A stretch of DNA of 64,000 nucleotides from Candidatus Actinomarina sp. (GTDB lineage Bacteria > Actinomycetota > Acidimicrobiia > Actinomarinales > Actinomarinaceae): contig JAYQJM010000005.1 in assembly GCA_038142145.1 (NCBI GenBank), forward strand, positions 451,816 through 515,815, written 5' to 3'. The position numbers and the translations under genes are program-made. The notes under the pieces were generated by a model. That model saw only the letters and a program-made list of their open reading frames with translations. It had not been told where the DNA came from and did not search any database. Below are positions 43,861 through 63,166 of this stretch, piece after piece. Numbering within the stretch: the stretch's first letter is position 1; each line of letters begins with the position of its first letter.

Positions 43861-44221
43861 ATCTATAAATTAAATAAGTTATAAAAATATATGCTATTTG
43901 TAAAAGAAATCTATAGAAGTGTTGTGTATTTGAAAAATAACGGTTTCCATAAGGAAGATTATTAACCCAGACGTATAAATTTGCTCCATATATTAAAACA
44001 AGAAAAATAATCATAAAAATTGCTGCTTCTTTTCTATATTTAGTTAATAAAAATAAAGGTGCAACTATTTCAATGACTCCAGTTAATTGATGAGTTAATT
44101 GAGGAAATGGAATAAATTTAGGTACTAATGGTTCATAAAATTGTGGGTTTAAGAAATGATTAATTCCAGCTAGTACGAAGAAGCCAATGTAAACATAAAT
44201 TAATAATTTAATTAAATCCAT
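43853..44221 (-). CDS. DoxX-like small membrane protein (4 TM)
   Basis: 122 aa, four helices. Coupled between glpK and the GH1 gene. Confidence 0.5.
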   Translation of the reverse strand: MDLIKLLIYVYIGFFVLAGINHFLNPQFYEPLVPKFIPFPQLTHQLTGVIEIVAPLFLLTKYRKEAAIFMIIFLVLIYGANLYVWVNNLPYGNRYFSNTQHFYRFLLQIAYIFITYLIYRYE

Positions 44222-45678
44222 TCTTTTGCTTTATTTATAGCTTTTGACCATTTTTGTATATATTTGTCTCTTAAATTACTTTCAATATTTGGCGACCAGG
44301 TTGACGAACTTGAAACAAAAGACGCCATGGTTTCCAATGAAAGGTTGTTTGTAAAAATATAGCTAGCTGCAGCAGCGCCTAAAGCTGTTATTTCATTAAT
44401 TTTTTGTGAAACAACTTCTTTACTAAAAATATCAGCTTGGAATTGCATCAACAAATTGTTTGCAATCATTCCTCCATCAACACTTACTTTTGAAAATTTA
44501 ACATTGGTATCTTTCTCCATAGCTTCTAACAATTCATACGATTGATATGCAACTGATTCAAGAACTGCTCTAGAAATATGAGACTTGTTTGAGTATCTAG
44601 ATAGTCCAACTAAAACTCCACGTGCAGTCTCATCCCAATGAGGAGAGAATAAACCAGAAAAAGCTGGTACAAAATACACATCTCCGTTGTCTTCAACTTT
44701 AGAAGCTAATGCTTCTACTTCAGAGCTTTCAGAAATAATGTTTAAATTATCTCGTAACCATTGAACTGCAGCTCCAGCTATTGCTACAGATCCTTCTAAT
44801 GCATATTGTGGATCTTCTCCCTCCACTTGAAAAGCCACAGTACTAAGCAAACCATTCGAAGATTTTACAATTTCACTACCAGTATTAGTTAATGCAAAAC
44901 AACCAGTTCCGTAAGTATTTTTTACTTCACCTTCTTTAAGACAATTTTGACCAAACAATGCTGCTTGTTGATCTCCTAATACAGCTGAGATTGGTATGTC
45001 TTTAAGAATTTCCTTATTTGTACCAAAATTTGATAATGAAGGCTTGATTGTTGGTAGTGAAGATGTTGGAATATTTAATTCTGCTGTTATTTCTTCTGAC
45101 CAATTTAAAGTTTCTAAATCCATTATTAAAGTTCTACTAGCGTTTGTCACATCTGTAATATGTGTACCAGTTAATTTATACAAGAGCCAACTGTCAATTG
45201 TTCCAAAACAAACGTTATTATTTTGTAGTTCAATTTGAATATTATTTACATTGCGTATAAGCCATAATATTTTTGATAATGAAAAATACGTTGCGACTGG
45301 TAAACCCGTTTTTTCTAATTGATATTTAATATTTTGATTCTCTTTAATTTCATCACAAATATCTTGAGTTCTGGTGTCTTGCCAAACTAATGCGTTATGA
45401 AATGGTTCACCTGTATTTCGATTCCAAGCTAATGTAGTTTCTCTTTGATTTGTAATACCAATGCTATCTAACTGATCAATTGAAAATTCTTTATCTACTT
45501 CATCAATACAATTAAGTACTGATTCCCATATTTCATTAGGATCATGCTCTACGGACACCTCATCAGGAAGATACTGAGTAAATTCTTGTTGGTGTTGCTT
45601 TACTATTGAACCATTTTCATCAAAAACTATAAACCTTGAACTTGTAGTTCCTTGATCAATAGCTCCAAAATATTTCAT
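44212..45678 (-). CDS. glpK: glycerol kinase
   Basis: 488 aa. AIDQGTTSSRF, GDQQAALFGQ and FGGY-kinase domains. Confidence 0.95.
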   Translation of the reverse strand: MKYFGAIDQGTTSSRFIVFDENGSIVKQHQQEFTQYLPDEVSVEHDPNEIWESVLNCIDEVDKEFSIDQLDSIGITNQRETTLAWNRNTGEPFHNALVWQDTRTQDICDEIKENQNIKYQLEKTGLPVATYFSLSKILWLIRNVNNIQIELQNNNVCFGTIDSWLLYKLTGTHITDVTNASRTLIMDLETLNWSEEITAELNIPTSSLPTIKPSLSNFGTNKEILKDIPISAVLGDQQAALFGQNCLKEGEVKNTYGTGCFALTNTGSEIVKSSNGLLSTVAFQVEGEDPQYALEGSVAIAGAAVQWLRDNLNIISESSEVEALASKVEDNGDVYFVPAFSGLFSPHWDETARGVLVGLSRYSNKSHISRAVLESVAYQSYELLEAMEKDTNVKFSKVSVDGGMIANNLLMQFQADIFSKEVVSQKINEITALGAAAASYIFTNNLSLETMASFVSSSSTWSPNIESNLRDKYIQKWSKAINKAKEWI

Positions 45679-45725
45679 AGACTTTATTTTAAAATTTTAA
45701 ATTTATATATGTCCAATAAAAGAAT

Positions 45726-45986
45726 TTATATTCCGTTTTGAGAACCAAAAGGTCCAATAATGGTGCCCATGATAAATCCATAGGTGAATCCATAAAAGAA
45801 ACCAATTTTAAGATATTTTATAGTTTCATTTCTAAATCTAAGCTTTCCATCATCTTCAAAACGAAACTTATATCTATATTTGTCAGAGAAAGTATGTCGA
45901 ACGACTGGATAGAGATAAAATATAAAACCAATACCAATACCTGATAAAATTCCTTCGATAAGTCGTGATAGAGCTTCTTCTAACAT
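45726..45986 (-). CDS. hypothetical small membrane protein
   Basis: 86 aa. Two Gly-rich hydrophobic helices flank a basic loop. Confidence 0.4.
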   Translation of the reverse strand: MLEEALSRLIEGILSGIGIGFIFYLYPVVRHTFSDKYRYKFRFEDDGKLRFRNETIKYLKIGFFYGFTYGFIMGTIIGPFGSQNGI

Positions 45987-46040
45987 TCTTTCAATTTAGT
46001 GACGTTTTTAAATTAAATAGATACAATAAAATGACTTACT

Positions 46041-46793
46041 ATGGATTATCTTTACGACGATACAACTGTTTTTATAATTTTATTTGTTGTTGCCTTTTTT
46101 GCTTCTTTAATTGATTCAATTGCAGGAGGAGGTGGGTTATTGACGACTCCCTCAATGCTCCTTGTTGGAATGCCACCACTAAATGTTTTGGCTACTAATA
46201 AATTTCAATCTTGTTTTGGTACGTTTACGTCTACCTTTAATTATTACAAAAATGGACTACTGGTAGAAAAAAAAAGATTTCTATATTTTGTATTAGCATT
46301 CACTGGATCTTCTATAGGTACATTACTTGTAAGTAGAATTTCAAATGAAACACTTGAATCAGTCATACCAATTTTATTAATTAGTGCTGCAATATTCTTT
46401 ATTACAAACAAAGGGCCTTCTGCGGTGAAACAAAATGAAAAATTGCTTATCATTTTTAATTTAGTTGTATTTGCGATTGGATTTTACGATGGATTTTTTG
46501 GTCCAGGTACAGGTTCCTTTTTTGTTTTATCTTTCATCATTATTAAAGGAGCAAATATTATGCAAGCTACCGCAGTAACAAAGCTCTTAAATTTTGCATC
46601 TAATTTCGCTGCATTTATTATTTTTGCGTTCCAAGGTTATGTACTTTGGTATCTTGGTTTAACTATGGCTGTAGCTCAAATCGCAGGTGCTTATACCGGA
46701 TCTAGATTTGCAATAAAAAATGGTGAGAAGGCTGTTAGGCCTGTATTAGTTATTGTTTCAATACTTTTATCTATAAGAATTTTGTTAGGATAA
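46041..46793 (+). CDS. TauE/SafE family anion (sulfite/sulfonate) exporter
   Basis: 250 aa, 7-8 TM. N-terminal DSIAGGGGLLTTP is typical of TauE/SafE. Confidence 0.8.
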   Translation: MDYLYDDTTVFIILFVVAFFASLIDSIAGGGGLLTTPSMLLVGMPPLNVLATNKFQSCFGTFTSTFNYYKNGLLVEKKRFLYFVLAFTGSSIGTLLVSRISNETLESVIPILLISAAIFFITNKGPSAVKQNEKLLIIFNLVVFAIGFYDGFFGPGTGSFFVLSFIIIKGANIMQATAVTKLLNFASNFAAFIIFAFQGYVLWYLGLTMAVAQIAGAYTGSRFAIKNGEKAVRPVLVIVSILLSIRILLG

Positions 46794-46820
46794 AAAAAAC
46801 CGGCAGACTAGCTACCGGTT
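46792..46820 (-). terminator. probable rho-independent terminator of cspA
   Basis: The minus strand reads AACCGG-tAG-CTAGT-CTg-CCGGTT followed by TTTTTT (complement of the A8 run 46792-46799). It lies 22 nt after the cspA stop, between convergent genes. Confidence 0.55.
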
Positions 46821-46842
46821 GTAAAACAGTTTAACTTTTAAT

Positions 46843-47040
46843 CTATTTAAGATTCTCAGCAGATGTTTTTCCGTTGTTTTGAACTAACTCATATTCAACA
46901 ACTTGATCTTCTTGAAGATCTTGCATGCCCGCATTTCTAACTGCAGACATATGTACGAATACGTCATCTCCACCATCTTCTGGTTCAATGAATCCGTATC
47001 CTTTGGTTGAGTTAAACCATTTAACTTTGCCTTTCGGCAT
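46843..47040 (-). CDS. cspA: cold-shock protein (CspA family)
   Basis: 65 aa. [15 protein letters not shown] and DVFVHMSAV (RNP1/RNP2). Confidence 0.95.
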
Positions 47041-47044
47041 ATTT

Positions 47045-47050
47045 CTCCTT
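47045..47050 (-). promoter_or_regulatory. Shine-Dalgarno AAGGAG for cspA
   Basis: The minus strand reads TTAAGGAGAAATATG. Confidence 0.65.
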
Positions 47051-47111
47051 AATCGCTTTGTCTTTTACAAGACGAAATAATCATACATGATACAAAAAGT
47101 TTTCTTAGTAT

Positions 47112-48056
47112 TTATATTAAATTTATAGCCTGCTTTATAACTTCAACTGTTTCATCTCTCTTAGAAGGTTCAAGGTCAAGAAGTTGCAAATAAACAGCTC
47201 CTATACCAACTTCCTGCCACATAAATAACGTTGAGGCAACCTCTTCAGGTGTGCCGTATAAATAACTTCTTTCTTTCCAGTTTTTTGCTATTTCATCTTC
47301 AGGTTGAATTAGTGCTTTAGCAGCTGTTATAAGTGAATTATCAACACTTTCTTTTGTTAATCCCACTACAGGTGGACATGCAGTTGTAATCTCAAGTGAG
47401 CTAACATCCCTATCGTTTTCTTGAGCTACTGTTTTAAATAAATTTATACTGTTTTCCAAGGTTTCTTTTGGACCTGCATAAATATTAAATTCTTCAGAAT
47501 ACTTACCAGCTAATGTTGGAGTTTTTACTTTTCCTCCACCACCAATAATTAGTGGAATTTGTGACAACGTTGCTGGCTCCACAGGAAATTTTTCTAATTG
47601 ATAATACTCGCCTTTAAATCCTTGATTATCACCAGATAAAGCTTCTCTGATATAAATAAGAGACTCCTCTAGCATTTCAAATCGAGTTTTTAAATTTGGA
47701 AAAGGAATACCAAACAGTTCATGTTCGATTTCTAACCAACCTGTGCCAACACCTAATCTAAATCTATTTGGTGCCATTTCATTAATCGTTGATGCCATCT
47801 TTACAAGAACACTTGGATGTCTAAAGGTAATTGGAGAAACAAGAATAGAATATATCATTTTCTCTGTATCTCGTACTAAACCTGCGCTTGCAGTAAGTAA
47901 ATCTAATGCAGGTGCCGGATTGTCTTTATCATGCCTTTGTTTACCAACAATATAGTGATCAGGTAATCCTATTCTTTCAATATCATTTTGTTCGGCCCAA
48001 GTAGATAAATTAAGTAACGTATCGTAACTACCTCTAGCTTGAATATAAATTTTCAT
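47112..48056 (-). CDS. LLM-class (luciferase-like) oxidoreductase
   Basis: 314 aa TIM-barrel LLM pattern (GLPDHY..., RFRLGVGTGW, PLIIGGGG). Confidence 0.8.
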   Translation of the reverse strand: MKIYIQARGSYDTLLNLSTWAEQNDIERIGLPDHYIVGKQRHDKDNPAPALDLLTASAGLVRDTEKMIYSILVSPITFRHPSVLVKMASTINEMAPNRFRLGVGTGWLEIEHELFGIPFPNLKTRFEMLEESLIYIREALSGDNQGFKGEYYQLEKFPVEPATLSQIPLIIGGGGKVKTPTLAGKYSEEFNIYAGPKETLENSINLFKTVAQENDRDVSSLEITTACPPVVGLTKESVDNSLITAAKALIQPEDEIAKNWKERSYLYGTPEEVASTLFMWQEVGIGAVYLQLLDLEPSKRDETVEVIKQAINLI

Positions 48057-48478
48057 TCTTCTTCTGAATGTACACGATTTAATCGGTCTTCGGGAGCGAT
48101 ATTAAAGTTTTTTGGATACTGTTCTCTGCTAATAAGGTCAGCATCCTCAGGTTGATAAAGAATGAAGTCTTTCATAAACACATCTTTTGCAACTCTTAGG
48201 TATGCAACTGCCTCAGCTACTGTAGCCTCACCTTTTTTAAATTTACTTCTTGCAAAATTTGATGCCTCAATTGCTCCTGCATAAATATGAGGTGCTAAAG
48301 AATTATAAAAAATATTTCTAATAGCATTTACTACAACCTGGCACTCAGGAGTTTGTAACCTTCTCCATACTGTGCTTCTGTTGATACCAAGCTTTTCTGC
48401 AATAACTGGATTAGAGTCACCCATAACGTGATACTCAGCTACTTTCCAATCTATATTATCTGGATTAAGTTCTTCCAT
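48053..48478 (-). CDS. helix-turn-helix protein (terminase-small-subunit-like N-terminal HTH)
   Basis: 141 aa. VAEYHVMGDSNPVIAEKLGINRSTVWRRLQTPECQ is an HTH of the kind seen in phage TerS and small regulators. Its stop overlaps the LLM start (ATGA). Confidence 0.55.
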   Translation of the reverse strand: MEELNPDNIDWKVAEYHVMGDSNPVIAEKLGINRSTVWRRLQTPECQVVVNAIRNIFYNSLAPHIYAGAIEASNFARSKFKKGEATVAEAVAYLRVAKDVFMKDFILYQPEDADLISREQYPKNFNIAPEDRLNRVHSEEE

Positions 48479-48544
48479 ATAATAATTTTAGCAACTCAAA
48501 ACGTCACTATAAACGCAATGATTATGGGGTTTTTTGCTGTAAAT

Positions 48545-50014
48545 TTATTTATCTACTTCAATAACAATTGCAGGAGGATTAGCAGTTCGATATGATCTAA
48601 AAGTTGCTCCTGGTTCTATCTTTAACAAGAAATCAGACTCACCTTCAAAACAACCATAAAATTTAGCTACTAAATTTGAACCTTCAGCTGTAATAAGGCC
48701 AGGGTTTGTCCATGTAGATTCCATTAATTCCCAGTCCCAAGAACAAAAAGCACCTCTTATATTTAAATACTCTATAAAATCATCAGGAACTTTACAACCA
48801 CCCTCATCAGTTACACAAGGATTCCCACCTTTTCTAACTGAATACCATCCAGGTGGTGAATCATTTTCTGTTGTTCTTTCTAGTAAAATCACAAAAGAAT
48901 CGAAAGTATCACCAGTAATAATTCCGGCATCTCGTAATAATGTTGGATTGTAATCACTTGTTCCACCTTCACCTTCAATTTTATCATTTGAGGACTCTGG
49001 TTCAGGTAAAGTAAGCTGGCAAATCAGATCAGGAATCGGAGTTGAATAACCACTTGGCCAAGGATGGCCTGTGTACTTGTAGGAATACCATACTCCATCC
49101 GAAGAGATTTTAAGTCTGAAACCATAAGTTCCATCATCTCCCTGATATGTGCCATCAATTAAACTTTTTGTAATTCCATTATCAAACATAGACATTTTAA
49201 CAACTTGATTTTCTCGTAATTGTTGAGGATTCATACTTTCCATTGGCCATATATAACCAGGTGATTCGCCAAACCATTCATCAGTATCATTACCACAAGC
49301 AATTTTAGGTTTACCCCAATTCTCCTCTGCTGGAGTCATATATAAGAGTGCACCTAATGTATATGTATATTTGCCTCGTTGATGATCATCATCATAATTA
49401 TTTTCAAATGATGCAATATATTCTGAAAATTTTGGCACTTCTGGATAAGCATCACCTGAATTTATAAAATCTAAATACTCTGTTGAAATACTCTCTAAAT
49501 ACTCATAATCACAAGTCCAGACCCCACGCATAATCTGACTTATAGTTATCACTGCTTCTTCTGTTAAGTAATCATAATTATCTTCTGCCCAATCAAAATA
49601 GGTATCATAATATTCAATTGTTGATTCAAATACTCCAAATGCTTTTTTATGTTCATCTGTTTTAGAAATTCTGTTAAAGCTACAATCAAAATCAACCAAT
49701 GTACCAATTAAAGTACTATTTTCATCAAAATCATCAAATCCATAAGCTCCAGTTTGATCTTCTCTATTAAAAACATCCCATGCCCATTCAAAGTTTTCTG
49801 GTTTCTCTGATGACAACACTATTGCCCACGTACCATCGTCGTACTCTCCCCAGTAGTAACCAACTGGGATATCTAATACTGGTGCATTTGTTGTAGTTGT
49901 TGTATATTCTGCGGATACGGTTGTGTCAATTGGTTCAACGTATTCAGGTAATTCTTTAGATGAACTGCTACAACTTACAAAAAATAACAATATAAAAATT
50001 ATTGATTTGTACAT
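48545..50014 (-). CDS. orphan acidic Cys-rich lipoprotein
   Basis: 489 aa. Signal plus lipobox FFVSCSSS, a TTTTT linker and about 8 further Cys. No family recognised. Confidence 0.6.
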   Translation of the reverse strand: MYKSIIFILLFFVSCSSSSKELPEYVEPIDTTVSAEYTTTTTNAPVLDIPVGYYWGEYDDGTWAIVLSSEKPENFEWAWDVFNREDQTGAYGFDDFDENSTLIGTLVDFDCSFNRISKTDEHKKAFGVFESTIEYYDTYFDWAEDNYDYLTEEAVITISQIMRGVWTCDYEYLESISTEYLDFINSGDAYPEVPKFSEYIASFENNYDDDHQRGKYTYTLGALLYMTPAEENWGKPKIACGNDTDEWFGESPGYIWPMESMNPQQLRENQVVKMSMFDNGITKSLIDGTYQGDDGTYGFRLKISSDGVWYSYKYTGHPWPSGYSTPIPDLICQLTLPEPESSNDKIEGEGGTSDYNPTLLRDAGIITGDTFDSFVILLERTTENDSPPGWYSVRKGGNPCVTDEGGCKVPDDFIEYLNIRGAFCSWDWELMESTWTNPGLITAEGSNLVAKFYGCFEGESDFLLKIEPGATFRSYRTANPPAIVIEVDK

Positions 50015-50092
50015 TAAATTAATTTTAAAAAAGAATATGGCTTTTGCAGGTCTTTTGTTTTTTTTGCAGGATAGATTTCTGAAAAACCCTTG

Positions 50093-50139
50093 TGGGCGCT
50101 ACAGGATTTGAACCTGTGACTTCTTCCTTGTAAGGGAAG
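50093..50139 (-). other. tRNA-Val(UAC) 3' fragment (anticodon arm to discriminator), att-site-like relic
   Basis: The minus strand reads CTTCC-CTTACAA-GGAAG AAGTC ACAGG-TTCAAAT-CCTGT AGCGCCC-A. Upstream there is no GGGCGCT acceptor strand and no convincing D-arm, so this is not a complete tRNA. Confidence 0.75.
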
Positions 50140-50183
50140 ACCTCATCATAAAGAGTTATAATAAACTAAAAGAAAGGAAATAA

Positions 50184-50588
50184 ATGATAAATGTAGTAAG
50201 AATTAGAAGATTCTTTGCTATCTTTTTGCTCTTTTCTACTATTCAAGGTGTGATCTCTGATTACGAAAAAGGTCTTCCATTGAGCGAGATTATACCTGGT
50301 GCTGTTCTAATGGTAATAATTGTATTTTTCCTAGTTAAACCTCCAAAAAAGAAAAAAAAACAATTAGAAGTTGAAGATTTAAACTACGAAGAAATTGATG
50401 AAGCCATCATAATTGAAGAAACTTTTGACAATATGGAAACTTCAGAAGTTGAAGAAAATGATGAATATTTACCATCAGAAGATCTTAAAAGTAAATACGA
50501 ACAAAAAAGAGAGATAAGAAGTAATCCAATTAACGATAAGCAAAGTTTGTTATCAAGAATCTTTCAAGGTAAAACCGATAGATATTAA
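50184..50588 (+). CDS. hypothetical membrane-anchored acidic protein
   Basis: 134 aa. Two N-terminal hydrophobic segments, a KKKKK stop-transfer and an E/D-rich tail. Confidence 0.45.
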   Translation: MINVVRIRRFFAIFLLFSTIQGVISDYEKGLPLSEIIPGAVLMVIIVFFLVKPPKKKKKQLEVEDLNYEEIDEAIIIEETFDNMETSEVEENDEYLPSEDLKSKYEQKREIRSNPINDKQSLLSRIFQGKTDRY

Positions 50589-50621
50589 TTACTTAATTTA
50601 ATAACTAATTATTCTCATCTT

Positions 50622-51992
50622 ATGGATTTTTTTGATATCGCAATACTGCTCTTCACGTTTGAGTTAATATTTTATAAATTTATTCCTCAAAGAGTGTTTC
50701 TATTTTCTATTTACTTAGGGGTTTTAACTGCAATTGCACAAATAATAGTTGTTGGGTATAAATGGCAATATATGCCGATATACTTTATTATCTTCGCATA
50801 TTCAGTTAGGTTTACATATTCTTCAACTGTTTTTAATAAATTTATTTCAAGAATCTCTTCTTTAGTAATGTTTTTTACCTTTTTAACTGCTTTAGTTCTC
50901 AATTATGTGTTTCCAGTTCCAACATTTGAAATAGAGAACTTCAAATACACAGTTGGATATGAAGAAATTTACATTAAATTAGACAAAGAAAATCCAAAGG
51001 CATTTCTTGAAATAAGCAATTTAGAACCCGGTTCAAATAGAGAATTAATGGTTGATATATATTACCCAAGCAATGAGGAATCTGATTATGTTCAATTAGT
51101 AAAAGAAAAAGGTAAAGTTGGTGGAACAATTGTTCAGTATTTAAATAGAACTTGGGGTCTAAATATTCCTGAAGTATTGTTAGAACACCTGTCTTTAATC
51201 AGTTTTCAAGTTTCTGAAAATATAGAACCAATAGATGAAAAACTTCCCGTTGTAGTTTACTCACATGGATGGGCTGGAACAAAGTTTTTTGCTGCAGAAC
51301 AATTAATGAATCTTGCTTCTCAAGGATATATCGTTATAGCAGTTGATCATACGGGATTAGCAATGTTTACTAATTTACCTGATAAAACTATTTACAATAC
51401 TGGCTCTAGTGATGTGTCCTCAAATATATTCAATGTTATGAATGGTATGGCAATAGATATTGAAGACACATTAAGTTATTTACAAGAAACTTCATTGTCT
51501 GAGAATTTAAATACTTTATTTAAGAACTATGCAGACTTTAATAACATTTCATTAATTGGACACTCTACTGGAGGTGGGTCAATATATTTATACTGCACTA
51601 ATAATCCATGTCAAACAATGATTTTACAAGATCCATTTTTTACACCATTGACAACTGAGCTTGGTATTTTAAACATGCCTTCTGATACATACTGGATTTA
51701 CTCACAAGACTGGTATAGAGGATTTGAACCAGGAGTGGAAACCCCAGAGTTTGATGTTTATAAGGACCAATTTAATAGAAATGGATATAAAGCAGAAAGT
51801 TACTATTTAAAAGAATCGAGACATTATGACTTTATTGCTTTTGGTTCTATAAGCCCCTTATCAGGTTATACATTTTTAAAAGGACCAATCCCCTATAAAA
51901 ATGCTTTAGAGTCAAATAATAGTTTCAATTTAGCAGCCTTAACGAATAACAATATTGTTGAAACTGAATACCTTATTCAAATTTCTGAGTGA
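50622..51992 (+). CDS. membrane-anchored alpha/beta hydrolase, PAF-acetylhydrolase-like lipase
   Basis: 456 aa. About 4 N-terminal TM helices. PVVVYSHGWAGTKFFAAEQLMNLASQGYIVIAVDHTG and nucleophile elbow GHSTGG. Confidence 0.7.
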   Translation: MDFFDIAILLFTFELIFYKFIPQRVFLFSIYLGVLTAIAQIIVVGYKWQYMPIYFIIFAYSVRFTYSSTVFNKFISRISSLVMFFTFLTALVLNYVFPVPTFEIENFKYTVGYEEIYIKLDKENPKAFLEISNLEPGSNRELMVDIYYPSNEESDYVQLVKEKGKVGGTIVQYLNRTWGLNIPEVLLEHLSLISFQVSENIEPIDEKLPVVVYSHGWAGTKFFAAEQLMNLASQGYIVIAVDHTGLAMFTNLPDKTIYNTGSSDVSSNIFNVMNGMAIDIEDTLSYLQETSLSENLNTLFKNYADFNNISLIGHSTGGGSIYLYCTNNPCQTMILQDPFFTPLTTELGILNMPSDTYWIYSQDWYRGFEPGVETPEFDVYKDQFNRNGYKAESYYLKESRHYDFIAFGSISPLSGYTFLKGPIPYKNALESNNSFNLAALTNNNIVETEYLIQISE

Positions 51993-52034
51993 ATACAATA
52001 CACTAATATTTATAATTAGTAAGGATTTTTTATT

Positions 52035-52700
52035 ATGACTCTTATAGATGGTACATATTTAGCAATAGAAAAGCCTCTTCTCTATATACATATTTTTGCA
52101 GGTTTTGTATCACTAAGTATCGCCTATATTTTGTTATTTATAAAAAAAGGCAATAAAAGACATAAACAATTAGGAATGATTTATGTTTACGGAATGTCAA
52201 CAATTTTTATCACTGCTATTCCAATGAGCTTGCTTGGAGGTTTAAATATATTTTTATTTGTTGTGGCTATCTTTTCATTTTACTTAGCTTTTGCTGGATA
52301 TAGACAAGGTAGGAATAGACAAGGTGCTAGAGAAACTATTGATAAACTTTTTGCCGCATTTATTCTTCTTGCAGCTTTTGGGTTATATGCATTGGCTGTT
52401 CAATCTTATTTAAATGATGATTCAATGTGGATAACATCAGTTGTGTTTGGAACAATCTCTCTTGGTTTTGGCATTAGAGATATTTTAAGATTTAGAAAGA
52501 ATGATAAACCAAATTTTTATGATAGAACAAACTTGCATTTGATATTGATGTTAAGCGCAACAATTGCTACGACAACAGCCTTTTGGGTAACTATTGATTT
52601 ATTCCCTCAAGAATGGCTTAACTGGGTTTCCCCAAATTTTGTGTTGGTTCCAGTTATTATTTACTTTTCTAGGAAAGAATTAGCGAAAAAAGAATCATAA
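52035..52700 (+). CDS. hypothetical polytopic membrane protein
   Basis: 221 aa, about 6 TM. No motif recognised. Confidence 0.55.
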   Translation: MTLIDGTYLAIEKPLLYIHIFAGFVSLSIAYILLFIKKGNKRHKQLGMIYVYGMSTIFITAIPMSLLGGLNIFLFVVAIFSFYLAFAGYRQGRNRQGARETIDKLFAAFILLAAFGLYALAVQSYLNDDSMWITSVVFGTISLGFGIRDILRFRKNDKPNFYDRTNLHLILMLSATIATTTAFWVTIDLFPQEWLNWVSPNFVLVPVIIYFSRKELAKKES

Positions 52701-52702
52701 AT

Positions 52703-53392
52703 CTAATTTAAAATGTTTTGAATTATAGCTTCACAATGAAGGTCTACTGTGTCGAAAACAGGTAATGATGAATTATCGCTATTAAGTAAAAGTCCAACTT
52801 CTGTACATCCTAATATGACAGAATCAGCTCCAAGTAATTTAACATTTTCTACAATTTGAATAAAAAGTCTTCTACTTTCATCTTTCAAAACATTAAAACA
52901 TAGTTCATCATAAATAATTGAATGCAAGACTTCTCTATCCTCACTAGAGGGAACGATTGGATCAAGTGAATACTCTTTTAATTTAGATATATAAAAATCT
53001 TCCTCCATGGTGAATTTTGTAGCAAGTAACGCAGGCTTTGAGTATCCAGAATCTTTTATCTTCTTAGCTGTAGGGTTTGCAATATGAATAAAGTTTGTTT
53101 CAACACCATTTAACATAGCTTCTTCTAACTTATGCATCGTATTTGTACAAAGCGCTAACACTTCAGCTCCTGACGAACTAAGCAAGTGTGCCTCTTCATT
53201 CAAAATTTGACCTAATTGGTCCCAATCATTTTCATGCTGTAGTTTTTCTATTTCACCAAAATTAACTGAACTTAATAGTATTTTTGGTGTTGTTAAATCT
53301 CCAAAATGATCTGAGGTTAATTTATTTAACTTTTCGTAGTAAGTAATGGTCGAAGAATATGACATTCCACCAATAAGACCAACTGTTTTCAT
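52703..53392 (-). CDS. aspartate/glutamate racemase family protein
   Basis: 229 aa. VGLIGGMSYSSTITYY and the second catalytic-Cys region VILGCTEVGLL. Confidence 0.85.
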   Translation of the reverse strand: MKTVGLIGGMSYSSTITYYEKLNKLTSDHFGDLTTPKILLSSVNFGEIEKLQHENDWDQLGQILNEEAHLLSSSGAEVLALCTNTMHKLEEAMLNGVETNFIHIANPTAKKIKDSGYSKPALLATKFTMEEDFYISKLKEYSLDPIVPSSEDREVLHSIIYDELCFNVLKDESRRLFIQIVENVKLLGADSVILGCTEVGLLLNSDNSSLPVFDTVDLHCEAIIQNILN

Positions 53393-53421
53393 ATATTAAA
53401 TCTACAATATAAAATAACTTT

Positions 53422-53661
53422 ATGAATGATTTAGGTGTAAATGAAAACACTATAACTGGGCAGATATATATTTCTATTTTTGAAATCCTAGAAGAACATT
53501 TAGACAGTGGAATAAACTGGACTGAACTAAATAAAACATTAGAAAACAAACATCCAAATTTTCATCCTAAGACGATTAATGGTTGTGTATGGAAATTAAT
53601 TCAAAAATACCCTGATAAAGTACATAAGCCAGAGAAAGGATTGTTCAAATTAATACAATAA
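53422..53661 (+). CDS. small winged-helix-like protein
   Basis: 79 aa. The pattern ...IFEILEEHLDSGINWTELNKTL...KPEKGLFKL resembles HARE-HTH/Mrr_N-type winged helices. This is pattern-level only. Confidence 0.4.
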   Translation: MNDLGVNENTITGQIYISIFEILEEHLDSGINWTELNKTLENKHPNFHPKTINGCVWKLIQKYPDKVHKPEKGLFKLIQ

Positions 53662-53705
53662 ATAAAGATTTAATTGAAAACTTACAAGGTACTGAATTTC
53701 AGATT

Positions 53706-53951
53706 ATGGTCTGGAAAGAAATTGCAAAAATACCGTTTGGGCAAACAATAACCTACAAAGAGCTAGCTGAAAACATAGGTAGACCTAAAAGCTCTAGAGC
53801 AGTAGCTAATGCATGTGGGAAGAATCCAATACCTCCAACAATTCCATGTCATAGAGTTATAAGAACAGATGGAAAATTAGGTGGATACAGTGGTGAAGGT
53901 GGAATCGAGCAAAAAAGAAATCTTTTAAAAAAAGAAGGTGTAATTATTTAA
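53706..53951 (+). CDS. ogt: methylated-DNA--protein-cysteine methyltransferase, C-terminal (active-site) domain only
   Basis: 81 aa. IPFGQTITYKELA and active site IPCHRVI. The conserved GT.FQ..VW element (GTEFQIMVW) straddles the annotated ATG. Confidence 0.8.
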   Translation: MVWKEIAKIPFGQTITYKELAENIGRPKSSRAVANACGKNPIPPTIPCHRVIRTDGKLGGYSGEGGIEQKRNLLKKEGVII

Positions 53952-55742
53952 TTACGTTTTTACGTTTAAATCTGATTTTCTCAATCTTATTGTTTCAGGA
54001 GTAACTTCAACAAACTCATCATCACTAATAAACTCTAATGACTGATCAAGAGACATTAACTGAGGAGGTCTTAACGGAACTGTATCATCAGAACCCGACG
54101 CCCTGTGATTAGTTAGTTTTTTCTCTTTAGTTATATTTACAACAAGATCTCCTTCATTATTTCTTTCGCCAATAATCATACCTTTATATACCATTGTTCC
54201 TGGTGTAACAAACAGGATTCCCCTATCAGCCATTGCGAGACTTGCATAAGTTGTAACTTTTCCATCTCTATCTGCAACAAGAACACCAGTTGAACGCTGA
54301 GGAATATCACCAAACCATGGTTTATATGAATCAAATAATGTATTCATTATTCCAGCACCTCTAGTTTCAGTAAGGAACTGATTTCTAAATCCTATTAAAC
54401 CTCTAGATGGTATTTCAAACTCTAATGTAGCCCTACCAAAACCATTATTCATCAAGCTAGTCATTTTACCTTTTCTTGATGATAGATTTTTTGTAACATT
54501 CCCAACGTACTCTTCAGGAATATCTATAAAGACATTTTCGACAGGTTCATGAGTTTTTCCATCAATTTCAGACGTAATAACTTCTGGTCTTGAAACCATA
54601 AATTCAAAACCCTCTCTCCTCATTGTTTCGATAAGGACTGCCATTTGAAGTTCTCCTCTGCCTTTAACTTCAAAAACATCTGTTTTGTCTGTTCTTGAAA
54701 CTTGAAGTGAGACATTATTAAGAATTTCTTTCTCTAAACGCTCTATCAAGTTTCTTGAGGTAACAAACTTCCCTTCTCTGCCAGCAAAAGGTGAATTATT
54801 TACATGAAAAAAGATAGAGACAGTTGGTTGATCAATGCTTATCCGGGGTAAAGCTACAGGTTCTATGTTGTCTGATAAAGTATCTCCAATATTAATATCA
54901 TCAATTCCAGCAACAGCGATGATATCACCTGACTCTAATCTCTCTACAGATTCTTTTTCTAAACCTTTAAATGTATACAGTGCAGAAAGTTTTAAATTGT
55001 TTTTGATACCTTCTTCAGTACAGAGACTATATCTTTCATTAATTTGTAAAGTACCTTGATCAAGCCTTCCTACAGCAACTTGACCAACGTAATCGTCATA
55101 AAATAAATTTGTTATAAGAAATTGTGTTACACCTTCATCTGATGTTTCAGGACCATCAAAATAATTAATTATTAAATTAAATAAAGGTGTTAAGTCAGTT
55201 GGTGTATCTTCTAAATTATCAACTGCAACTCCATCTTTTGCATTTGTATATATAATTGGAAATTCTATTTGTTCATCATTTGCATCTAGGTCTATGAATA
55301 AATCATACGTTTCCTGAACTACCTCGTTTACTCTTGCATCAGGTTTATCTATTTTGTTTATGACCAATACAACTGGTAAATTTTTTTCTAAAGCTTTTTT
55401 CAATACAAATCTAGTTTGTGGCAGTGGACCTTCACTAGAATCGACAAGTAACAGAACTCCATCTACAAGATTTAAGCTTCTTTCAACTTCCCCACCAAAG
55501 TCAGCATGTCCTGGAGTATCTACAATATTAATTTTTATATCTTTATAGTGGATAGCAGTATTTTTAGAAGTAATAGTAATACCACGTTCTTTTTCTAAAT
55601 CTCCAGAGTCCATAACACGATCTTCAACAACAGTGTGACTGCTAAATGTACCGCTCTGCTTTAAAAGACCGTCAACTAATGTCGTTTTACCATGATCAAC
55701 GTGTGCAATGATTGCAATGTTTCGTATATTCTCTTTTGGCAT
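53952..55742 (-). CDS. typA: translational GTPase TypA/BipA
   Basis: 596 aa. AIIAHVDHGKTTLVD, DTPGHADF and NKID G-motifs. Confidence 0.97.
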   Translation of the reverse strand: MPKENIRNIAIIAHVDHGKTTLVDGLLKQSGTFSSHTVVEDRVMDSGDLEKERGITITSKNTAIHYKDIKINIVDTPGHADFGGEVERSLNLVDGVLLLVDSSEGPLPQTRFVLKKALEKNLPVVLVINKIDKPDARVNEVVQETYDLFIDLDANDEQIEFPIIYTNAKDGVAVDNLEDTPTDLTPLFNLIINYFDGPETSDEGVTQFLITNLFYDDYVGQVAVGRLDQGTLQINERYSLCTEEGIKNNLKLSALYTFKGLEKESVERLESGDIIAVAGIDDINIGDTLSDNIEPVALPRISIDQPTVSIFFHVNNSPFAGREGKFVTSRNLIERLEKEILNNVSLQVSRTDKTDVFEVKGRGELQMAVLIETMRREGFEFMVSRPEVITSEIDGKTHEPVENVFIDIPEEYVGNVTKNLSSRKGKMTSLMNNGFGRATLEFEIPSRGLIGFRNQFLTETRGAGIMNTLFDSYKPWFGDIPQRSTGVLVADRDGKVTTYASLAMADRGILFVTPGTMVYKGMIIGERNNEGDLVVNITKEKKLTNHRASGSDDTVPLRPPQLMSLDQSLEFISDDEFVEVTPETIRLRKSDLNVKT

Positions 55743-55820
55743 AAGAGAGAATTATATATTGTATTTATAGATGTAGGATTAAAAAATATTTTTTATAAAT
55801 TTAAATTTTAACTAATATTT

Positions 55821-55934
55821 TTACTTTCTTTTACCAGTTCTATTAGTACGAAAATCGAGGCGACCTTTTCTTTTACTCATGTGAATTTTTTTGCGCTTTT
55901 CACGTCTAGCTTCCCTAATTTCTTTTTCAGCCAT
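55821..55934 (-). CDS. possible 37-aa highly basic peptide (bS22-like composition)
   Basis: Not in the track (<60 aa). My translation is MAEKEIREARREKRKKIHMSKRKGRLDFRTNRTGKRK, with 17 of 37 residues K/R. The KRKK.(H)MSKRK core recalls mycobacterial ribosomal protein bS22 (..KKRRKRMSKKKHRKLL..). I see no obvious SD. Confidence 0.3.
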   Translation of the reverse strand: MAEKEIREARREKRKKIHMSKRKGRLDFRTNRTGKRK

Positions 55935-55956
55935 ATAACTATGTTAATGTTATTAC

Positions 55957-56859
55957 ATGAATAACAACTACTCACAAAGTATTCCGAAAATTGGTCTTGG
56001 AACTTACAACATGACTCCTGAAGAAGCAGAAATTATGACGTTCGAGTCAATTAAACATGGCTATAGGCATATTGATACAGCTGCAGTTTATAGAAACGAA
56101 GAGGGTGTTGCTAAAGGTTTAAACAAGATCTTTAAGGAAACGCAATTACAACGTGAAGATATATTTATAACAACTAAATTATGGCCTGGTGGTTTAATGA
56201 AAGTCGATTTAGTTAAAAGCTACGATGGAGCAAGAAAGTCATTCGAAAAAAGTATGTTACGTTTAGGTTTAGAGTATTTAGATTTATATTTAATCCACTC
56301 CCCTCATGCAAAAGAAAAAAGACTCGAGCAATGGAGAGCGCTTGTTGACTTAAAAGAATCTGGAAGAGTTAAACATATTGGAGTGTCTAACTGGGGAGAA
56401 ACACATATAAATGAATTGTTAGAGAATGATTTACCTTTACCTGATGCAAATCAAATAGAATTACATCCCTGGTCTCAAAAACCTGATTTAGTTAAATATC
56501 TAAGATCACATGATATTGAAATTATTGCTTACAGTAGTTTGGTACCACTATCTACATGGAGACACAAAAAGGGTGAAAATAGTAAAAAAACTGAAGAGAT
56601 GCAATCAATAGGAAATCAGGAAAGCTCACCTTTCAAAGTACTTGCTGAAAAATATAACGTTACAGAAGCGCAATTTTTACTGCAATGGGCTATTCAAAAC
56701 AACTATGCTGTTTTACCAAAAAGCATTCAGATTGATAGGATGCAAGAGAATTTTGATTTTGACTTCGTGATTGGAGAGGATGATATTAAATATATTAAAA
56801 CTCTCGATAAAGGTGACAGTGTTACCTGGGAATACGGAGATCCCCTAGCTGTTCAATAA
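55957..56859 (+). CDS. aldo/keto reductase
   Basis: 300 aa. IDTAAVYRNEE, TTKLW and LIHSP (the D-Y-K-H tetrad context). Confidence 0.9.
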   Translation: MNNNYSQSIPKIGLGTYNMTPEEAEIMTFESIKHGYRHIDTAAVYRNEEGVAKGLNKIFKETQLQREDIFITTKLWPGGLMKVDLVKSYDGARKSFEKSMLRLGLEYLDLYLIHSPHAKEKRLEQWRALVDLKESGRVKHIGVSNWGETHINELLENDLPLPDANQIELHPWSQKPDLVKYLRSHDIEIIAYSSLVPLSTWRHKKGENSKKTEEMQSIGNQESSPFKVLAEKYNVTEAQFLLQWAIQNNYAVLPKSIQIDRMQENFDFDFVIGEDDIKYIKTLDKGDSVTWEYGDPLAVQ

Positions 56860-56864
56860 AATTC

Positions 56865-57038
56865 TTATATAATTTTAAAATATTTAAGCGCTCTAATTGC
56901 AAAATAGATAATGCCAATGAATACAGAAGTAGCTAACAAAATGTCACTCATGCTTGTCTCTGGTGGAATATAAGTTACAGCATTAAAAATTAGAATTGAA
57001 CCAAATATAAGTATTTGAAAGATTTTTTTTCTATTCAT
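56865..57038 (-). CDS. possible 57-aa two-TM peptide
   Basis: Not in the track. My translation is MNRKKIFQILIFGSILIFNAVTYIPPETSMSDILLATSVFIGIIYFAIRALKYFKII. It fills an otherwise empty 194-nt gap. Confidence 0.3.
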   Translation of the reverse strand: MNRKKIFQILIFGSILIFNAVTYIPPETSMSDILLATSVFIGIIYFAIRALKYFKII

Positions 57039-57053
57039 CTAAGGCTTAGCTTA

Positions 57054-57254
57054 CTATTCAAAAAATAGATCAGCTATAGGTGTTCCTTTGAGATACTTTC
57101 TATATTGTTCTAGCTCTTTTGGGTTTTCCATTAAACATGCAGAACAATATGACGGAAGCCCCTTTCTAATTTCAACATTCAGTCCACATAACCAACAATG
57201 TGTTTTTATTAAAGGTAATTCATATTCACTATTTTGATTTAACGCACCATACAT
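57054..57254 (-). CDS. small zinc-ribbon protein
   Basis: 66 aa. The CWLC ... CSAC pair suggests a zinc ribbon. Confidence 0.45.
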   Translation of the reverse strand: MYGALNQNSEYELPLIKTHCWLCGLNVEIRKGLPSYCSACLMENPKELEQYRKYLKGTPIADLFFE

Positions 57255-57375
57255 ATCATATAAATCTAGATTCTCTGTAAGACAGATTTGCTACTGAGAG
57301 AGTAAAAGGAATCCAAAAAATAAAGGAATAAGAAGTATAAATGCTCCTAATAAAATTCTTGTTCCCTTCATAAAA

Positions 57376-57813
57376 TTACTTTTCTCTTATCGATATAAAA
57401 AATACAGCTAACGTCACTAGACCAATAATTGGAGATACTGCACCTGGGGGGGCATCTCCTAAAATTAAAGGTTTATATAGTCCTACTGCTCCTCTTAAAA
57501 TATTTTCTAAAGCAACAATGAGCAACATAAGAGGTATGAATTCTCTCATTTTTAAAACAACAAGTAATAAGATGCAAGCTAAAACTAGCTGAGAAAAACC
57601 CCACTGTGCAAATATTGAAATTATATTGTTTGCAGCTTCAGAAGAATATGACTCAAGCTGAATACCAGCAATCGATTGAGCTCCTCCATCCTCATTAAAT
57701 ATATGCTCTAAACTTCTAAAAAAATTAAATGCAACTAATAGCCATGTGAAATAATAGACAAATTTGTTACTTGGAATTTGATTTTCTATTGTTTCAGGAA
57801 TTATTTTTTTCAT
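57376..57813 (-). CDS. hypothetical membrane protein (4 TM)
   Basis: 145 aa with four hydrophobic helices. It contains the C7/G7 homopolymer at 57446-57452. Confidence 0.55.
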   Translation of the reverse strand: MKKIIPETIENQIPSNKFVYYFTWLLVAFNFFRSLEHIFNEDGGAQSIAGIQLESYSSEAANNIISIFAQWGFSQLVLACILLLVVLKMREFIPLMLLIVALENILRGAVGLYKPLILGDAPPGAVSPIIGLVTLAVFFISIREK

Positions 57814-57997
57814 TCATATCAATTCTAAAAAGAGTATTGATAAATGTTTTGATTATTTATTTAATTAGTATTTAAAGAACATCTATTATGACTGAAACAG
57901 GCTCTATATCGCAGTGAGTGATAAATAAATCAGACTTCAGAAGTGATCAGTTCCAACTTTGTTCCAACTTTTTATAAGTAACTTATAGATAACCCAT

Positions 57998-59281
57998 TCA
58001 ACCTGAATTAATAGAATAGAAATCTACTAATTCATTTAAAGGTTTTGTTGGGAAAAAGCCAACAGGAGGAACTGTATTATCCATTATGAACTGATTAAAG
58101 TTTTTATAAAAATCATCTAAGCTAAGCCCTACATGCTTCTCAAAACTAGATTCAAATCCTAATTGATAAACATCTTCATGAAGGTTAATAAATAAAGTGT
58201 CAAATGAAGTTATATATGCAAGATAAAAATTTATCATTTGCCAACCATCAGAATTGCAAATTCCGGTTTCTCTATATTCTTCTAGTTTTGTAAATTCAGT
58301 GCATTCTCCTTGTTTATTTACAATATCGTTTCTTAAATAATTATATTTTTCTACAAGATTACAACCTGATCCTAAAATAAATCTACCTTTTTTGGTTCCA
58401 GGATCAGCTACAGGATTATTTTCGCAAGCTCCTACTCCGTCAAAATCTTTAACAAATGAAAAATCATTAAAATTATCTATAAAAAACAAAGTTGGGAATA
58501 CTTGTGCCTGCCCCTCAACATACCAAGCTGGCGCATTTACCGGATTGTTTAAGCCACAACAATCATTTTCCATTGCATTTGATCTACCAAATGTATGTGA
58601 TCTTTGAACATGGTGGTAATATTCATGTACAAAACTACCGATTACTTGTAGAAGAAATCCTTCCTCGCCATAGAAATTTTTATTAAATTCTTCATCAGGA
58701 TTTGAGTATGGATAAGGTTGATTACAGAATGAGAATTCATTAAATGTCCAATCTTTATTTCTTCCAAAACTTGATAGACAACTTCTTCTGTCGTAAACAA
58801 TATCTATTGCAGGAGTTTGTTTATTTCCGTTTTCGTCATAGAAATAACCAAATTGATCTAATGCATTAAGAAGTTCAGTGTTATCAGCTTCAATTTCGTA
58901 GATTACATGTACCCATCGATCGTATCCACCAACATAATCAATAAGCTTGTTCATTACCTCTATTTGATATTCTCTAAAATTTTCAGGAATACTATCAGAC
59001 CAAAGAAGACAGAATTCAGGATCTTTTTTAGGAATGTTCAAACCTAATTCTTTACTAACCTCATAAAAATTATTTGTTCCTGGAATTACTAATTCAGGTA
59101 TTGTACATTGAGCATCCTTTGTAAATAGAATTACGCTACCACTCATATTATTTTCCTGAACTGGTGTAGTAGTTGTGGTGTCTTGAACTGTAGTAGTTGT
59201 GGTGTCTTGGACTGAATTATTGTTATTTGAACCTGAACAAGATACAAAAATTAATAGAATTAGAAAATATAATTTTTTCAT
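57998..59281 (-). CDS. orphan Cys-rich lipoprotein with HExxH zinc-metallopeptidase motif
   Basis: 427 aa. Lipobox FVSCSGS, duplicated VQDTTTTT linker and SFVHEYYHHVQRSH (HExxH). About 10 Cys. Confidence 0.6.
   Translation of the reverse strand: MKKLYFLILLIFVSCSGSNNNNSVQDTTTTTVQDTTTTTPVQENNMSGSVILFTKDAQCTIPELVIPGTNNFYEVSKELGLNIPKKDPEFCLLWSDSIPENFREYQIEVMNKLIDYVGGYDRWVHVIYEIEADNTELLNALDQFGYFYDENGNKQTPAIDIVYDRRSCLSSFGRNKDWTFNEFSFCNQPYPYSNPDEEFNKNFYGEEGFLLQVIGSFVHEYYHHVQRSHTFGRSNAMENDCCGLNNPVNAPAWYVEGQAQVFPTLFFIDNFNDFSFVKDFDGVGACENNPVADPGTKKGRFILGSGCNLVEKYNYLRNDIVNKQGECTEFTKLEEYRETGICNSDGWQMINFYLAYITSFDTLFINLHEDVYQLGFESSFEKHVGLSLDDFYKNFNQFIMDNTVPPVGFFPTKPLNELVDFYSINSG
59166..59213. repeat. 2 x 24-nt tandem repeat (1 mismatch) inside the lipoprotein gene
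   Basis: gtagtagttgtggtgtcttgaact / gtagtagttgtggtgtcttggact. It encodes VQDTTTTT twice on the minus strand. Confidence 0.85.
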
Positions 59282-59405
59282 TTCTTGTAGATAATAACAT
59301 TTTGAAATGTAATTTACTCAAGATACTCATGATATTCGAATGTTTTGCTTGGAATTAATTTGGAATCTCTTTAAATTTTCTCAAAAACTAATTAAAATAT
59401 TGGGT

Positions 59406-59780
59406 ATGAAATTTCAAGTAGCAGTATTTACGCGCCATGTTTGTCAGTCAACGGCTGCTTGCGCCACAGCAGCGTCACGCGGAGATATCTCAACTTTCAA
59501 CTTGGAGCACTGGCAAGAAGCATTATCAACAGGTGCAAGTGTTGGTCTTCTTGCAGTGATCTTCACTTTCGGCAGTCTCAAAAAGATTCAGTCCAATCGA
59601 TGGGGAATTGCGGGAATTGCTTTCGTTGCAACTATAATTGCTGACTTCTTAATGGACCATGCAAGTTACGGAGGTCTTATCGGCCAACCCTTAGTAACTG
59701 GACTGAGTGCAGCCTTTTTATCCTTGCTGCTTAGCTCTACAACCTTGGGGAATTTCTTAGAAAAACTTGAAACTGCATAA
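59406..59780 (+). CDS. phage r1t-type holin-like membrane protein (GC-elevated gene)
   Basis: The track ORF starts at 59340. I prefer ATG 59406 (MKFQVAVFTRHVCQSTAACATAA...HWQEALSTGASVGLLAVIFTFGS...). The pattern resembles actinobacterial/phage r1t-family holins (..R..KT.aQ.a.a........W...l..a..a.lsvLts). I hand-counted 165 G+C in 360 nt (59401-59760). Confidence 0.4.
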   Translation: MKFQVAVFTRHVCQSTAACATAASRGDISTFNLEHWQEALSTGASVGLLAVIFTFGSLKKIQSNRWGIAGIAFVATIIADFLMDHASYGGLIGQPLVTGLSAAFLSLLLSSTTLGNFLEKLETA

Positions 59781-59859
59781 CTTTCTATAGAGAATGCCAA
59801 GCCATCGTCACAGTTTATAAAAGTTTGATTGTATAGGCAAAATATGCCAATATTTATTG

Positions 59860-59906
59860 TGGCCAGAGGCAGAATCGAACTGCCGACCCCTTGTTTTTCA
59901 GATAAG
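59860..59906 (-). other. tRNA-Phe(GAA) 3' fragment (anticodon arm to discriminator), att-site-like relic
   Basis: The minus strand reads CTTAT-CTGAAAA-ACAAG GGGTC GGCAG-TTCGATT-CTGCC TCTGGCC-A. There is one A-C mismatch in the anticodon stem. No GGCCAGA acceptor strand or D-arm lies upstream. Confidence 0.75.
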
Positions 59907-59926
59907 TGGTCACGTATAATATCTAC

Positions 59927-63075: not shown

Positions 63076-63092
63076 TATAGAAGATTTTTTTG

Positions 63093-63166
63093 TGGGGAAT
63101 ACAAGACTTGAACTTGTGACCTCTTCCATGTCAAGGAAGCGCTCTGCCAGGCTGAGCTAATTCCCC
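63093..63166 (-). tRNA. tRNA-Val (anticodon GAC)
   Basis: Hand-folded 74-nt cloverleaf: GGGGAAT TA GCTC-AGCCTGGCA-GAGC G CTTCC-TTGACAT-GGAAG AGGTC ACAAG-TTCAAGT-CTTGT ATTCCCC A. All stems are Watson-Crick paired. CCA is not encoded. Confidence 0.93.

Follow-up and report, generated by a model that had tools for sequence, protein, structure and literature searches.

Among free-living marine bacteria, Candidatus Actinomarina ranks with the smallest and the most abundant, and it is reportedly almost without mobile elements. Its variable genes cluster at hot spots linked to tRNAs. Small integrative elements include phage-inducible chromosomal islands (PICI) and the tycheposon-type elements, tycheposons being elements of marine bacteria. 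The tRNA-gene integration sites of tyrosine integrases, with the anticodon loop as one sublocation, are said to have been described by Williams in 2002. Working on Ca. Actinomarinales, Lopez-Perez et al. (2020; PMC7771536) described a cell-envelope island with five tRNAs at which cassettes insert, and the same study reported cassettes bounded by direct tRNA repeats as well as a prophage in tRNA-Val, with tRNA-Ile and tRNA-Glu as the only extra loci beyond the additive flexible island fGI1. A tRNA-bounded hypervariable region has also been found in complete Actinomarina genomes (bioRxiv 10.64898/2026.04.03.716425).

The locus analysed here lies in a window of 64,000 nucleotides (C5:451816-515815) of a five-contig Ca. 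Actinomarina genome of 1.10 Mb and 32% GC (G000), and it extends a described system rather than introducing a new principle. It shares with the fGI1 cassettes (PMC7771536) the type of organism (about 1.1 Mb, 32% GC, selC-bearing), the tRNAs involved (Val and Phe), the absence of a resident integrase and the repetition of the 3' part of a tRNA at the ends of small cargo cassettes. The core is the same as in fGI1-type arrays of relatives. In contrast to those cassettes, the core in the window adjoins no tRNA gene; it is 364 kb away from tRNA-Val(UAC) and inverted, in a second island that is not listed in PMC7771536. What is new is an att core of conserved position, detached from its tRNA gene, located in a second island and, as relatives indicate, used.

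The feature that drew attention to the locus is a 47-nt piece of tRNA-Val(UAC) (Table 1). Read on the minus strand from 50139 to 50093, it gives CTTCC/CTTACAA/GGAAG, AAGTC, ACAGG/TTCAAAT/CCTGT, AGCGCCC and A, which are the anticodon arm, variable loop, T arm, 3' acceptor strand and discriminator, exactly as a first-pass annotation of the window had described them. The genome holds one intact tRNA-Val(UAC) gene (C5:865776-865850), and the fragment matches it at 100% identity, the kind of match that the annotation had proposed to look for. However, the repeat is longer than the 47 nt first recognised: it spans 68 bp and consists of tRNA positions 27-76 (48 nt of tRNA) followed by 20 nt of 3' flank (AAGGGTTTTTCAGAAATCTA). 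The two copies are 364 kb apart and in opposite orientation, which rules out the simple pairing of fragment and tRNA gene as attL and attR that the annotation implied. As it had anticipated, ARAGORN made no call at the fragment; the only tRNA called in the window was tRNA-Val(GAC) at 63092-63166, which at a distance of 13 kb is the tRNA nearest to the core, and the locus itself has no tRNA-Val(UAC) gene. Many mismatches exclude the fragment as a copy of tRNA-Val(GAC), again in agreement with the first reading. A full cloverleaf drawing on the upstream sequence was ruled out by ARAGORN, by the Rfam tRNA model and by the minimum free energy (MFE) fold, which forms hairpins for the anticodon and T arms but lacks an acceptor stem; in it, a downstream GGG that precedes a U-run is the partner of the 3' acceptor strand. 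The core is a copy of the tRNA-Val(UAC) target; it starts at the anticodon stem, continues 20 nt beyond the 3' end and is not preceded by a functional tRNA. We consider it likely that the fragment is the core of an orphan att site, kept at a fixed place in a flexible island and receiving cassette insertions on its 3' side.

Table 1. Coordinates of the features discussed; plain numbers are positions in the window.
Feature	Location	Strand	Remarks
Luciferase-like oxidoreductase gene	47112-48056		Island border
Flexible island	48057..59906		Luciferase-like gene to PanB-like gene; contains both orphan cores and accessory genes including typA/BipA
141-aa HTH protein	48053..48478	minus	Translationally coupled to luciferase-like gene
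Conserved 74-nt border of variable slot	48474..48549		84-90% identity in G021 and G013; upstream of HTH gene
489-aa orphan lipoprotein gene, cargo of 3'-side slot	48545..50014	minus	Absent in G013
Degenerate direct-repeat pair, CCTGCAAAA twice, starts 20 nt apart	50042..50070	minus	Directly 3' of core
att core, 68 bp	50072..50139	minus	100% identity to C5:865803-865870, inverted
tRNA-Val(UAC) 47-nt fragment	50093..50139	minus	tRNA positions 27-73; identical to intact gene
Degenerate D-arm-like relic, TAACTCTTTATGATGAGGT	50140..50158	minus	Rfam tRNA model positions 8-26
134-aa membrane-anchored acidic protein	50184..50588	plus	~40% identity to 136-aa homologue
tRNA-Phe(GAA) orphan core, 56 nt	59853..59908	minus	tRNA positions 25-74 plus 6 nt; 98.2% identity to C5:882644-882717
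PanB-like gene	59906-60757		PF02548; island border
G021 type I R-M cassette (hsdR, hsdS, hsdM)	L037 (G021:C1:15000-34999) 4104-10326		
G070 element, ~5.9 kb	L055 (G070:C3:164000-183999) 4835-10900		In tRNA-Val(UAC)

The sequence just upstream of the core bears on its origin. The first-pass annotation considered both the 5' acceptor strand and the D arm to be missing. In the alignment to the Rfam model no 5' acceptor strand is present upstream of the fragment, so the first part stands; the second needs amending, given that the local match (29.9 bits) covers model positions 8-63 and therefore includes a weak D-arm-like stretch (TAACTC...GAGG) ahead of the fragment. In the relatives G013 and G006, UAGC...GAGCG still precedes the core of the orthologous copies, which reach 37.2 bits over model positions 6-65, a resemblance to a tRNA that suggests descent from a longer tRNA copy. 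These remains would fit a dead gene, namely a former second tRNA-Val(UAC) that lost its 5' acceptor strand and D arm and persists as a functionless pseudogene. The D-arm relic is only suggestive, however, because an arm of the class-A elements also gives a weak D-arm-like alignment (28.1 bits), and the resemblance may thus be partly due to chance. Furthermore, a pseudogene would be expected to decay evenly, yet a block of 68 nt, 20 nt of them flank, matches the tRNA locus at 100% while the adjacent 20 nt are about half diverged, and the orthologous copy in G021 has received the insertion of a complete cassette. A pseudogene may describe how the site arose and leaves its present state unexplained; as an account of the fragment it is unlikely. 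For an orphan att core, the difference between the half-diverged upstream sequence and the 100% identical core could arise if visiting elements repeatedly rewrote the core from the crossover onward.

Directly 3' of the core is a degenerate pair of direct repeats, which we read as a decayed, putative arm-type pair of integrase-binding sites. Over 50022-50149 the window is 83% identical to G013, where the pair reads AAAGACACCTGAAAGACACC, and the CCTGCAAAA pair is probably a decayed form of the AAAGACACC pair of G013. The window has such a pair only 3' of the core; in G021, intact pairs are found on both arms.

The core recurs behind the tRNA-Val(UAC) gene of related genomes. The core was found in 31 of the 41 genomes searched (the window genome and 40 relatives), and many genomes of the same genus carry two to five copies that begin and end at the same points as the window copy. 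Synteny of 20 regions revealed a conserved primary locus, in which a class II ribonucleotide reductase (RNR) gene is followed by tRNA-Val(UAC) and by one to three more cores in direct orientation, spaced 0.7-4 kb apart. When all copies were aligned with their flanks, the array copies were preceded by a conserved upstream arm of ~45 nt (ctctataaattgatactctc..tagtatttaatggtt) and read CTTTCC where the tRNA reads CTTCCC. Every copy, the tRNA gene included, has a pair of ~10-nt direct repeats 12-16 nt downstream, and the sequence of the pair is specific to the cassette (e.g., AAAGACACCTAAAAGACACC or CACACCCACAAAACACCCACA). The cargo between the cores comprises a cytosine-methyltransferase pair, T5orf172-like, HIT-like and TIR-like proteins and lipoproteins (names read from the sequences, some of them checked against Pfam); no recombinase was found among the array cargo. 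The first-pass annotation had called the fragment a relic attachment site, and its choice of kind was sound, as the core bounds cassettes behind tRNA-Val(UAC) in the genus; the side on which it placed the insert was not.

Several further observations were made at these arrays. In the window genome itself, the DNA downstream of tRNA-Val(UAC) (C5:865871-873000; L001 10872-18000) contains a series of genes without Pfam families, a PG-binding protein and an MBOAT protein. The repeat word (CACTCGCACA) occurs there just once, in decayed form, and the core is not repeated. A Val core of G024 (L049, G024:C1:150000-169999, 9221-9285) is situated 63 nt downstream of a tRNA-Ile(GAU) gene, in a region where two copies of tRNA-Ile are separated by 4.5 kb, which shows that a core of one specificity can reach the array of another tRNA. 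In G018 (L042, G018:C2:84000-103999), ARAGORN calls two tRNA-Val(UAC) genes 3.7 kb apart, at 8433-8508 and 12241-12315, and the second call may be spurious, its upstream flank being unlike the 5' part of a tRNA.

The orphan core is part of an island whose size differs greatly between genomes. The space between the luciferase-like and PanB-like border genes is 11.85 kb in the window genome, with full Val and Phe cores; it measures about 15 kb in G021, with a full Val core, about 10 kb in G009, with a 16-nt Val relic, about 6.5 kb in G064, with a 15-nt Phe relic, and just 59 nt in G017 and G008, with no core relics. In the latter two genomes, a homologue of a 124-aa backbone gene of the island occurs ~2.5 kb away, beyond the PanB-like gene, and therefore a related island without cores is found nearby. 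The 141-aa HTH protein next to the luciferase-like gene belongs to the island, being syntenic yet divergent in the sister species and absent at the short site of G017 and G008. Its candidacy as a relic of a satellite small terminase was dismissed, with no PHROG match and a BLASTP E value of 19. The typA/BipA gene (53952-55742, minus strand) is also inside the island; a search of 12 relatives, several of them 90-94% complete, found it in only 3, and within the genus it is an accessory gene.

The same orphan Val core occupies the orthologous island in G021, G013, G006 and G007. A match that runs continuously across the junction of the core and the 124-aa gene was obtained in G021 and 11 other genomes, some with a partial core, and with G000, G006 and G013 added to these 12 the orphan core, whole or truncated, is present in at least 15 of 64 genus genomes. 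In G058, this junction is 1.4 kb from the luciferase-like gene, which places it at the same locus.

Comparison of syntenic genomes shows on which side of the core DNA has been gained or lost. G013 aligns with the window over 44001-48057 and 48474-48546 and, after 385 nt, resumes at 50022-50149, a stretch that comprises the core, the region of the repeat pair and another 10 nt. The two genomes therefore differ cleanly, 3' of the core, in the presence or absence of the 489-aa lipoprotein gene. In its place, the 385 nt of G013 hold an ORF for a membrane protein of ~52 aa. In G021, the slot is 6.6 kb long, of which 6.1 kb form a complete two-armed cassette with hsdRSM as cargo. This cassette begins with a full core and the 20-mer ACACCCACAAAACACCCACA about 20 nt past it, and the 20-mer recurs about 134 nt before the far end, which is formed by the conserved right arm and a truncated core (CTTTCCTTACAAGGAAGAAGTCA). 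G007 has two cores about 400 nt apart. The DNA beside the orphan core thus varies by insertion, as seen in the absence of the lipoprotein gene in G013 and the cassette of G021. The lipoprotein gene itself has a weak Pfam match only and no PHROG match, and it was rejected as cargo shared with other sites, with one relative of 60% in the genome contigs and none in the arrays. A side observation concerns the small membrane ORF (~52-55 aa, ..SYTPTQVIL..YLGIR..), which follows the terminal core in several relatives, both in primary arrays (L035, L040, L039 and L054) and at the orphan locus (L051 1322-1477, L037 3793-3951), and which is absent from the window genome.

The first-pass annotation had instead expected the inserted DNA above 50139, the fragment then being the attR of an element on its 5' side that has lost its integrase and whose remaining genes encode the acidic protein, a PAF-AH-like hydrolase and a membrane protein. 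Some features are consistent with such an element. The junction GAGCG/CTTCCC is common to several loci (in the tRNA-Ile array of G024, and in G009 and in G003), as expected of an element end, a homologue of the acidic protein adjoins such a core in G003 as well, a homologue of the 221-aa membrane protein of the window directly follows tRNA-Val in G023, and the PAF-AH-like gene is just 48% identical between species. However, the DNA above 50139 proved to be backbone common to the sister species, and the clear differences in presence and absence lie below 50072. In G021, G013, G006 and G007, the 5' side of the orphan Val core carries the 124-aa gene at 92-95% identity and the gene for the 136-aa acidic protein at 85-91%, values of 85-95% in four genomes that resemble vertically inherited genes. 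Moreover, neither a conserved element arm nor a repeat pair is found on the 5' side, no intact tRNA in direct orientation is available to serve as attL, and the cleanest indels are on the opposite, 3' side of the core. A former element on the 5' side therefore has a low probability. Both genes are also carried by G003, at lower identity. In all, five genomes besides that of the window have the 136-aa acidic-protein gene next to the orphan core, and the 124-aa gene has been lost from the window genome. Neither the 124-aa nor the 136-aa protein matches a Pfam family, and the 134-aa acidic protein of the window has no Pfam or PHROG family.

A scan of the genome with every tRNA and its flank returned a single other tRNA-fragment repeat, a piece of tRNA-Phe(GAA) that is situated in the same island. 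Its 5' end abuts the conserved PanB-like gene and its 3' end points into the island. The Phe core is kept at the island edge in G006, G012, G058 and G075, and the DNA on its 3' side is variable, G012 having two Phe cores 2 kb apart. Their variable 3' sides indicate that both orphan cores take insertions on the 3' side, as real tRNA genes do.

The presence of two such cores raises the question of whether part of the cell-envelope island, from tRNA-Val to tRNA-Phe, was inverted or translocated to this place in a large rearrangement that brought two att remnants along. The core and the tRNA gene have opposite orientations, the genome's only two tRNA-fragment repeats are both in the window and both match tRNAs of the island at 866-883 kb, and gene order is reportedly poorly conserved between species (bioRxiv 10.64898/2026.04.03.716425). 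Against this, both copies are on one replichore (terminus near 425 kb) and GC skew is not reversed over the 364 kb between them, so that a recent inversion or one symmetric about ori and ter was rejected as unsupported. The adjacency of RNR and tRNA-Val is conserved across the genus, and G021 has the same geometry (368 kb), by which any such rearrangement must be old. From the geometry, recombination between two inverted cores could not itself create the arrangement, and in the window the Phe and Val cores do not follow the order of the tRNA genes. Taken together, an origin of the site by large rearrangement is very improbable.

The statement in the first-pass annotation that no integrase survives was borne out: the window genome encodes only two tyrosine recombinases, both of Xer size and neither near a core copy, and nearly all of 61 genus genomes likewise have just two of Xer size. 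One exception is G070, in which a 366-aa integrase is directly beside tRNA-Val(UAC), within an element whose first part consists of the core, TTTCCCCCAC twice, the integrase (PF00589 and SAM_3; phrog_1), a 262-aa protein and an Xre-HTH protein. The remainder encodes a 103-aa protein, a DUF3631 protein and a small terminase subunit (phrog_4102, 6e-17) and finishes with a right arm ending in taatggtt, followed by the next core. This satellite-like element was found in one of the 61 genus genomes and in three marine metagenome contigs. The gene order of G070 recurs in such contigs with integrases of 78-99% identity, and two of them have it in the following form. One (L078, 5.9 kb) has cores at both ends, and in the other (L079) the right arm, core, repeat-pair arm and integrase gene are contiguous, which is the layout of an attP or of a tandem copy; no terminal overlap was detected in either contig. 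The cognate integrase gene adjoins the core in G070, L078 and L079 and does not in the window genome, where tblastn with all seven proteins of the G070 element retrieved the Xer genes only. The integrase-bearing element uses as its core exactly the block from anticodon stem to 3' end that the first-pass annotation had named as duplicated by such elements. In the autonomous elements, identity to the tRNA is confined to the 48 nt of the tRNA itself; in the window copy it extends over 68 nt.

The first-pass annotation had proposed to look for the 47-mer as attP in phage genomes. In the viral contigs, neither the 47-mer nor the arm-core junction had any match, and hence no attP or phage counterpart was found in them. 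The one viral match to a 29-mer was rejected as an attP; it belongs to an unrelated, GC-rich tRNA-Val(CAC) near a putative serine recombinase. This tRNA-Val(CAC) (L076, IMGVR_UViG_3300038466_000104, 187-262) has the same T-arm and acceptor sequence on a GC-rich viral contig, and its 3' end is overlapped on the opposite strand by an ORF of 614 aa for a putative large serine recombinase. For the G070 integrase, IMG/VR yielded a 27% relative only.

The following mechanism is proposed for the use of the orphan core. Small satellite-like elements of the genus would carry a tyrosine integrase and an attP that includes this tRNA-Val segment. Elements like those of G070, L078 and L079 would supply the integrase, which would be heterobivalent and would bind the repeat pairs as arm sites. 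Strand exchange would take place in the anticodon-loop or stem part of the core, a position suggested by two observations: the difference at position 4 (T or A in element copies, C in the tRNA) is retained at far junctions, and truncated far-side cores stop at about position 23 while short relics span positions 14-34. The element, or an integrase-less cassette with both att arms, would then enter 3' of the core as it does at the tRNA gene. Integrase-less two-armed cassettes could either have been moved in trans or have been left behind after loss of the integrase module. In the window genome, the orphan core has neither a direct-orientation partner nor an integrase, and no far-side arm or second att junction was found beyond the lipoprotein gene; use of the site in this lineage is therefore deduced from relatives. 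The lipoprotein cargo is old or arrived by replacement. With a single lipoprotein gene, a decayed near-side arm only and no integrase, the site in the window is a landing pad with old cargo and not an active element.

The locus and the elements that share its core can be compared with further known systems. The locus resembles anticodon-loop sublocation sites in that the identical block begins at the anticodon stem and includes the 3' end, the core has repeat pairs beside it and, in autonomous elements, the integrase gene adjoins it. Unlike such sites, the orphan target has no 5' third of a tRNA and its identity continues 20 nt past the tRNA, and the point of crossover would follow from the junction sequences described above. 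The autonomous elements resemble PICI and tycheposons, on gene content alone, in their size of ~5.9 kb, their position in a tRNA gene and their integrase, Xre-type regulator, DUF3631 protein and small terminase; no such element is present in the window genome, which sets it apart from these systems. As in integrons, promoter-less or single-gene cassettes are stacked at one platform, each with its own recombination site. In contrast to integrons, there is no resident integrase, attI or attC, and the site is derived from a tRNA and has lambda-like arms.

A broader and more tentative idea is that orphan tRNA-derived cores are portable landing pads. Detached Val and Phe targets may have seeded a second cassette island, and visits by satellite-type integrases may keep the core perfect; we regard this as possible, though not probable. 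If true, the island would be an integron-like gene bank without a resident integrase, in which the single-copy tRNA gene would not be put at risk. For Ca. Actinomarina, the finding means that a recombination target can function apart from its tRNA gene and that it marks a second flexible island, one that contains even typA. The likely agents are small satellite-like elements with an integrase, which are rare in the genomes. The exchange of defence and surface genes in streamlined oceanic genomes is thereby made more testable.
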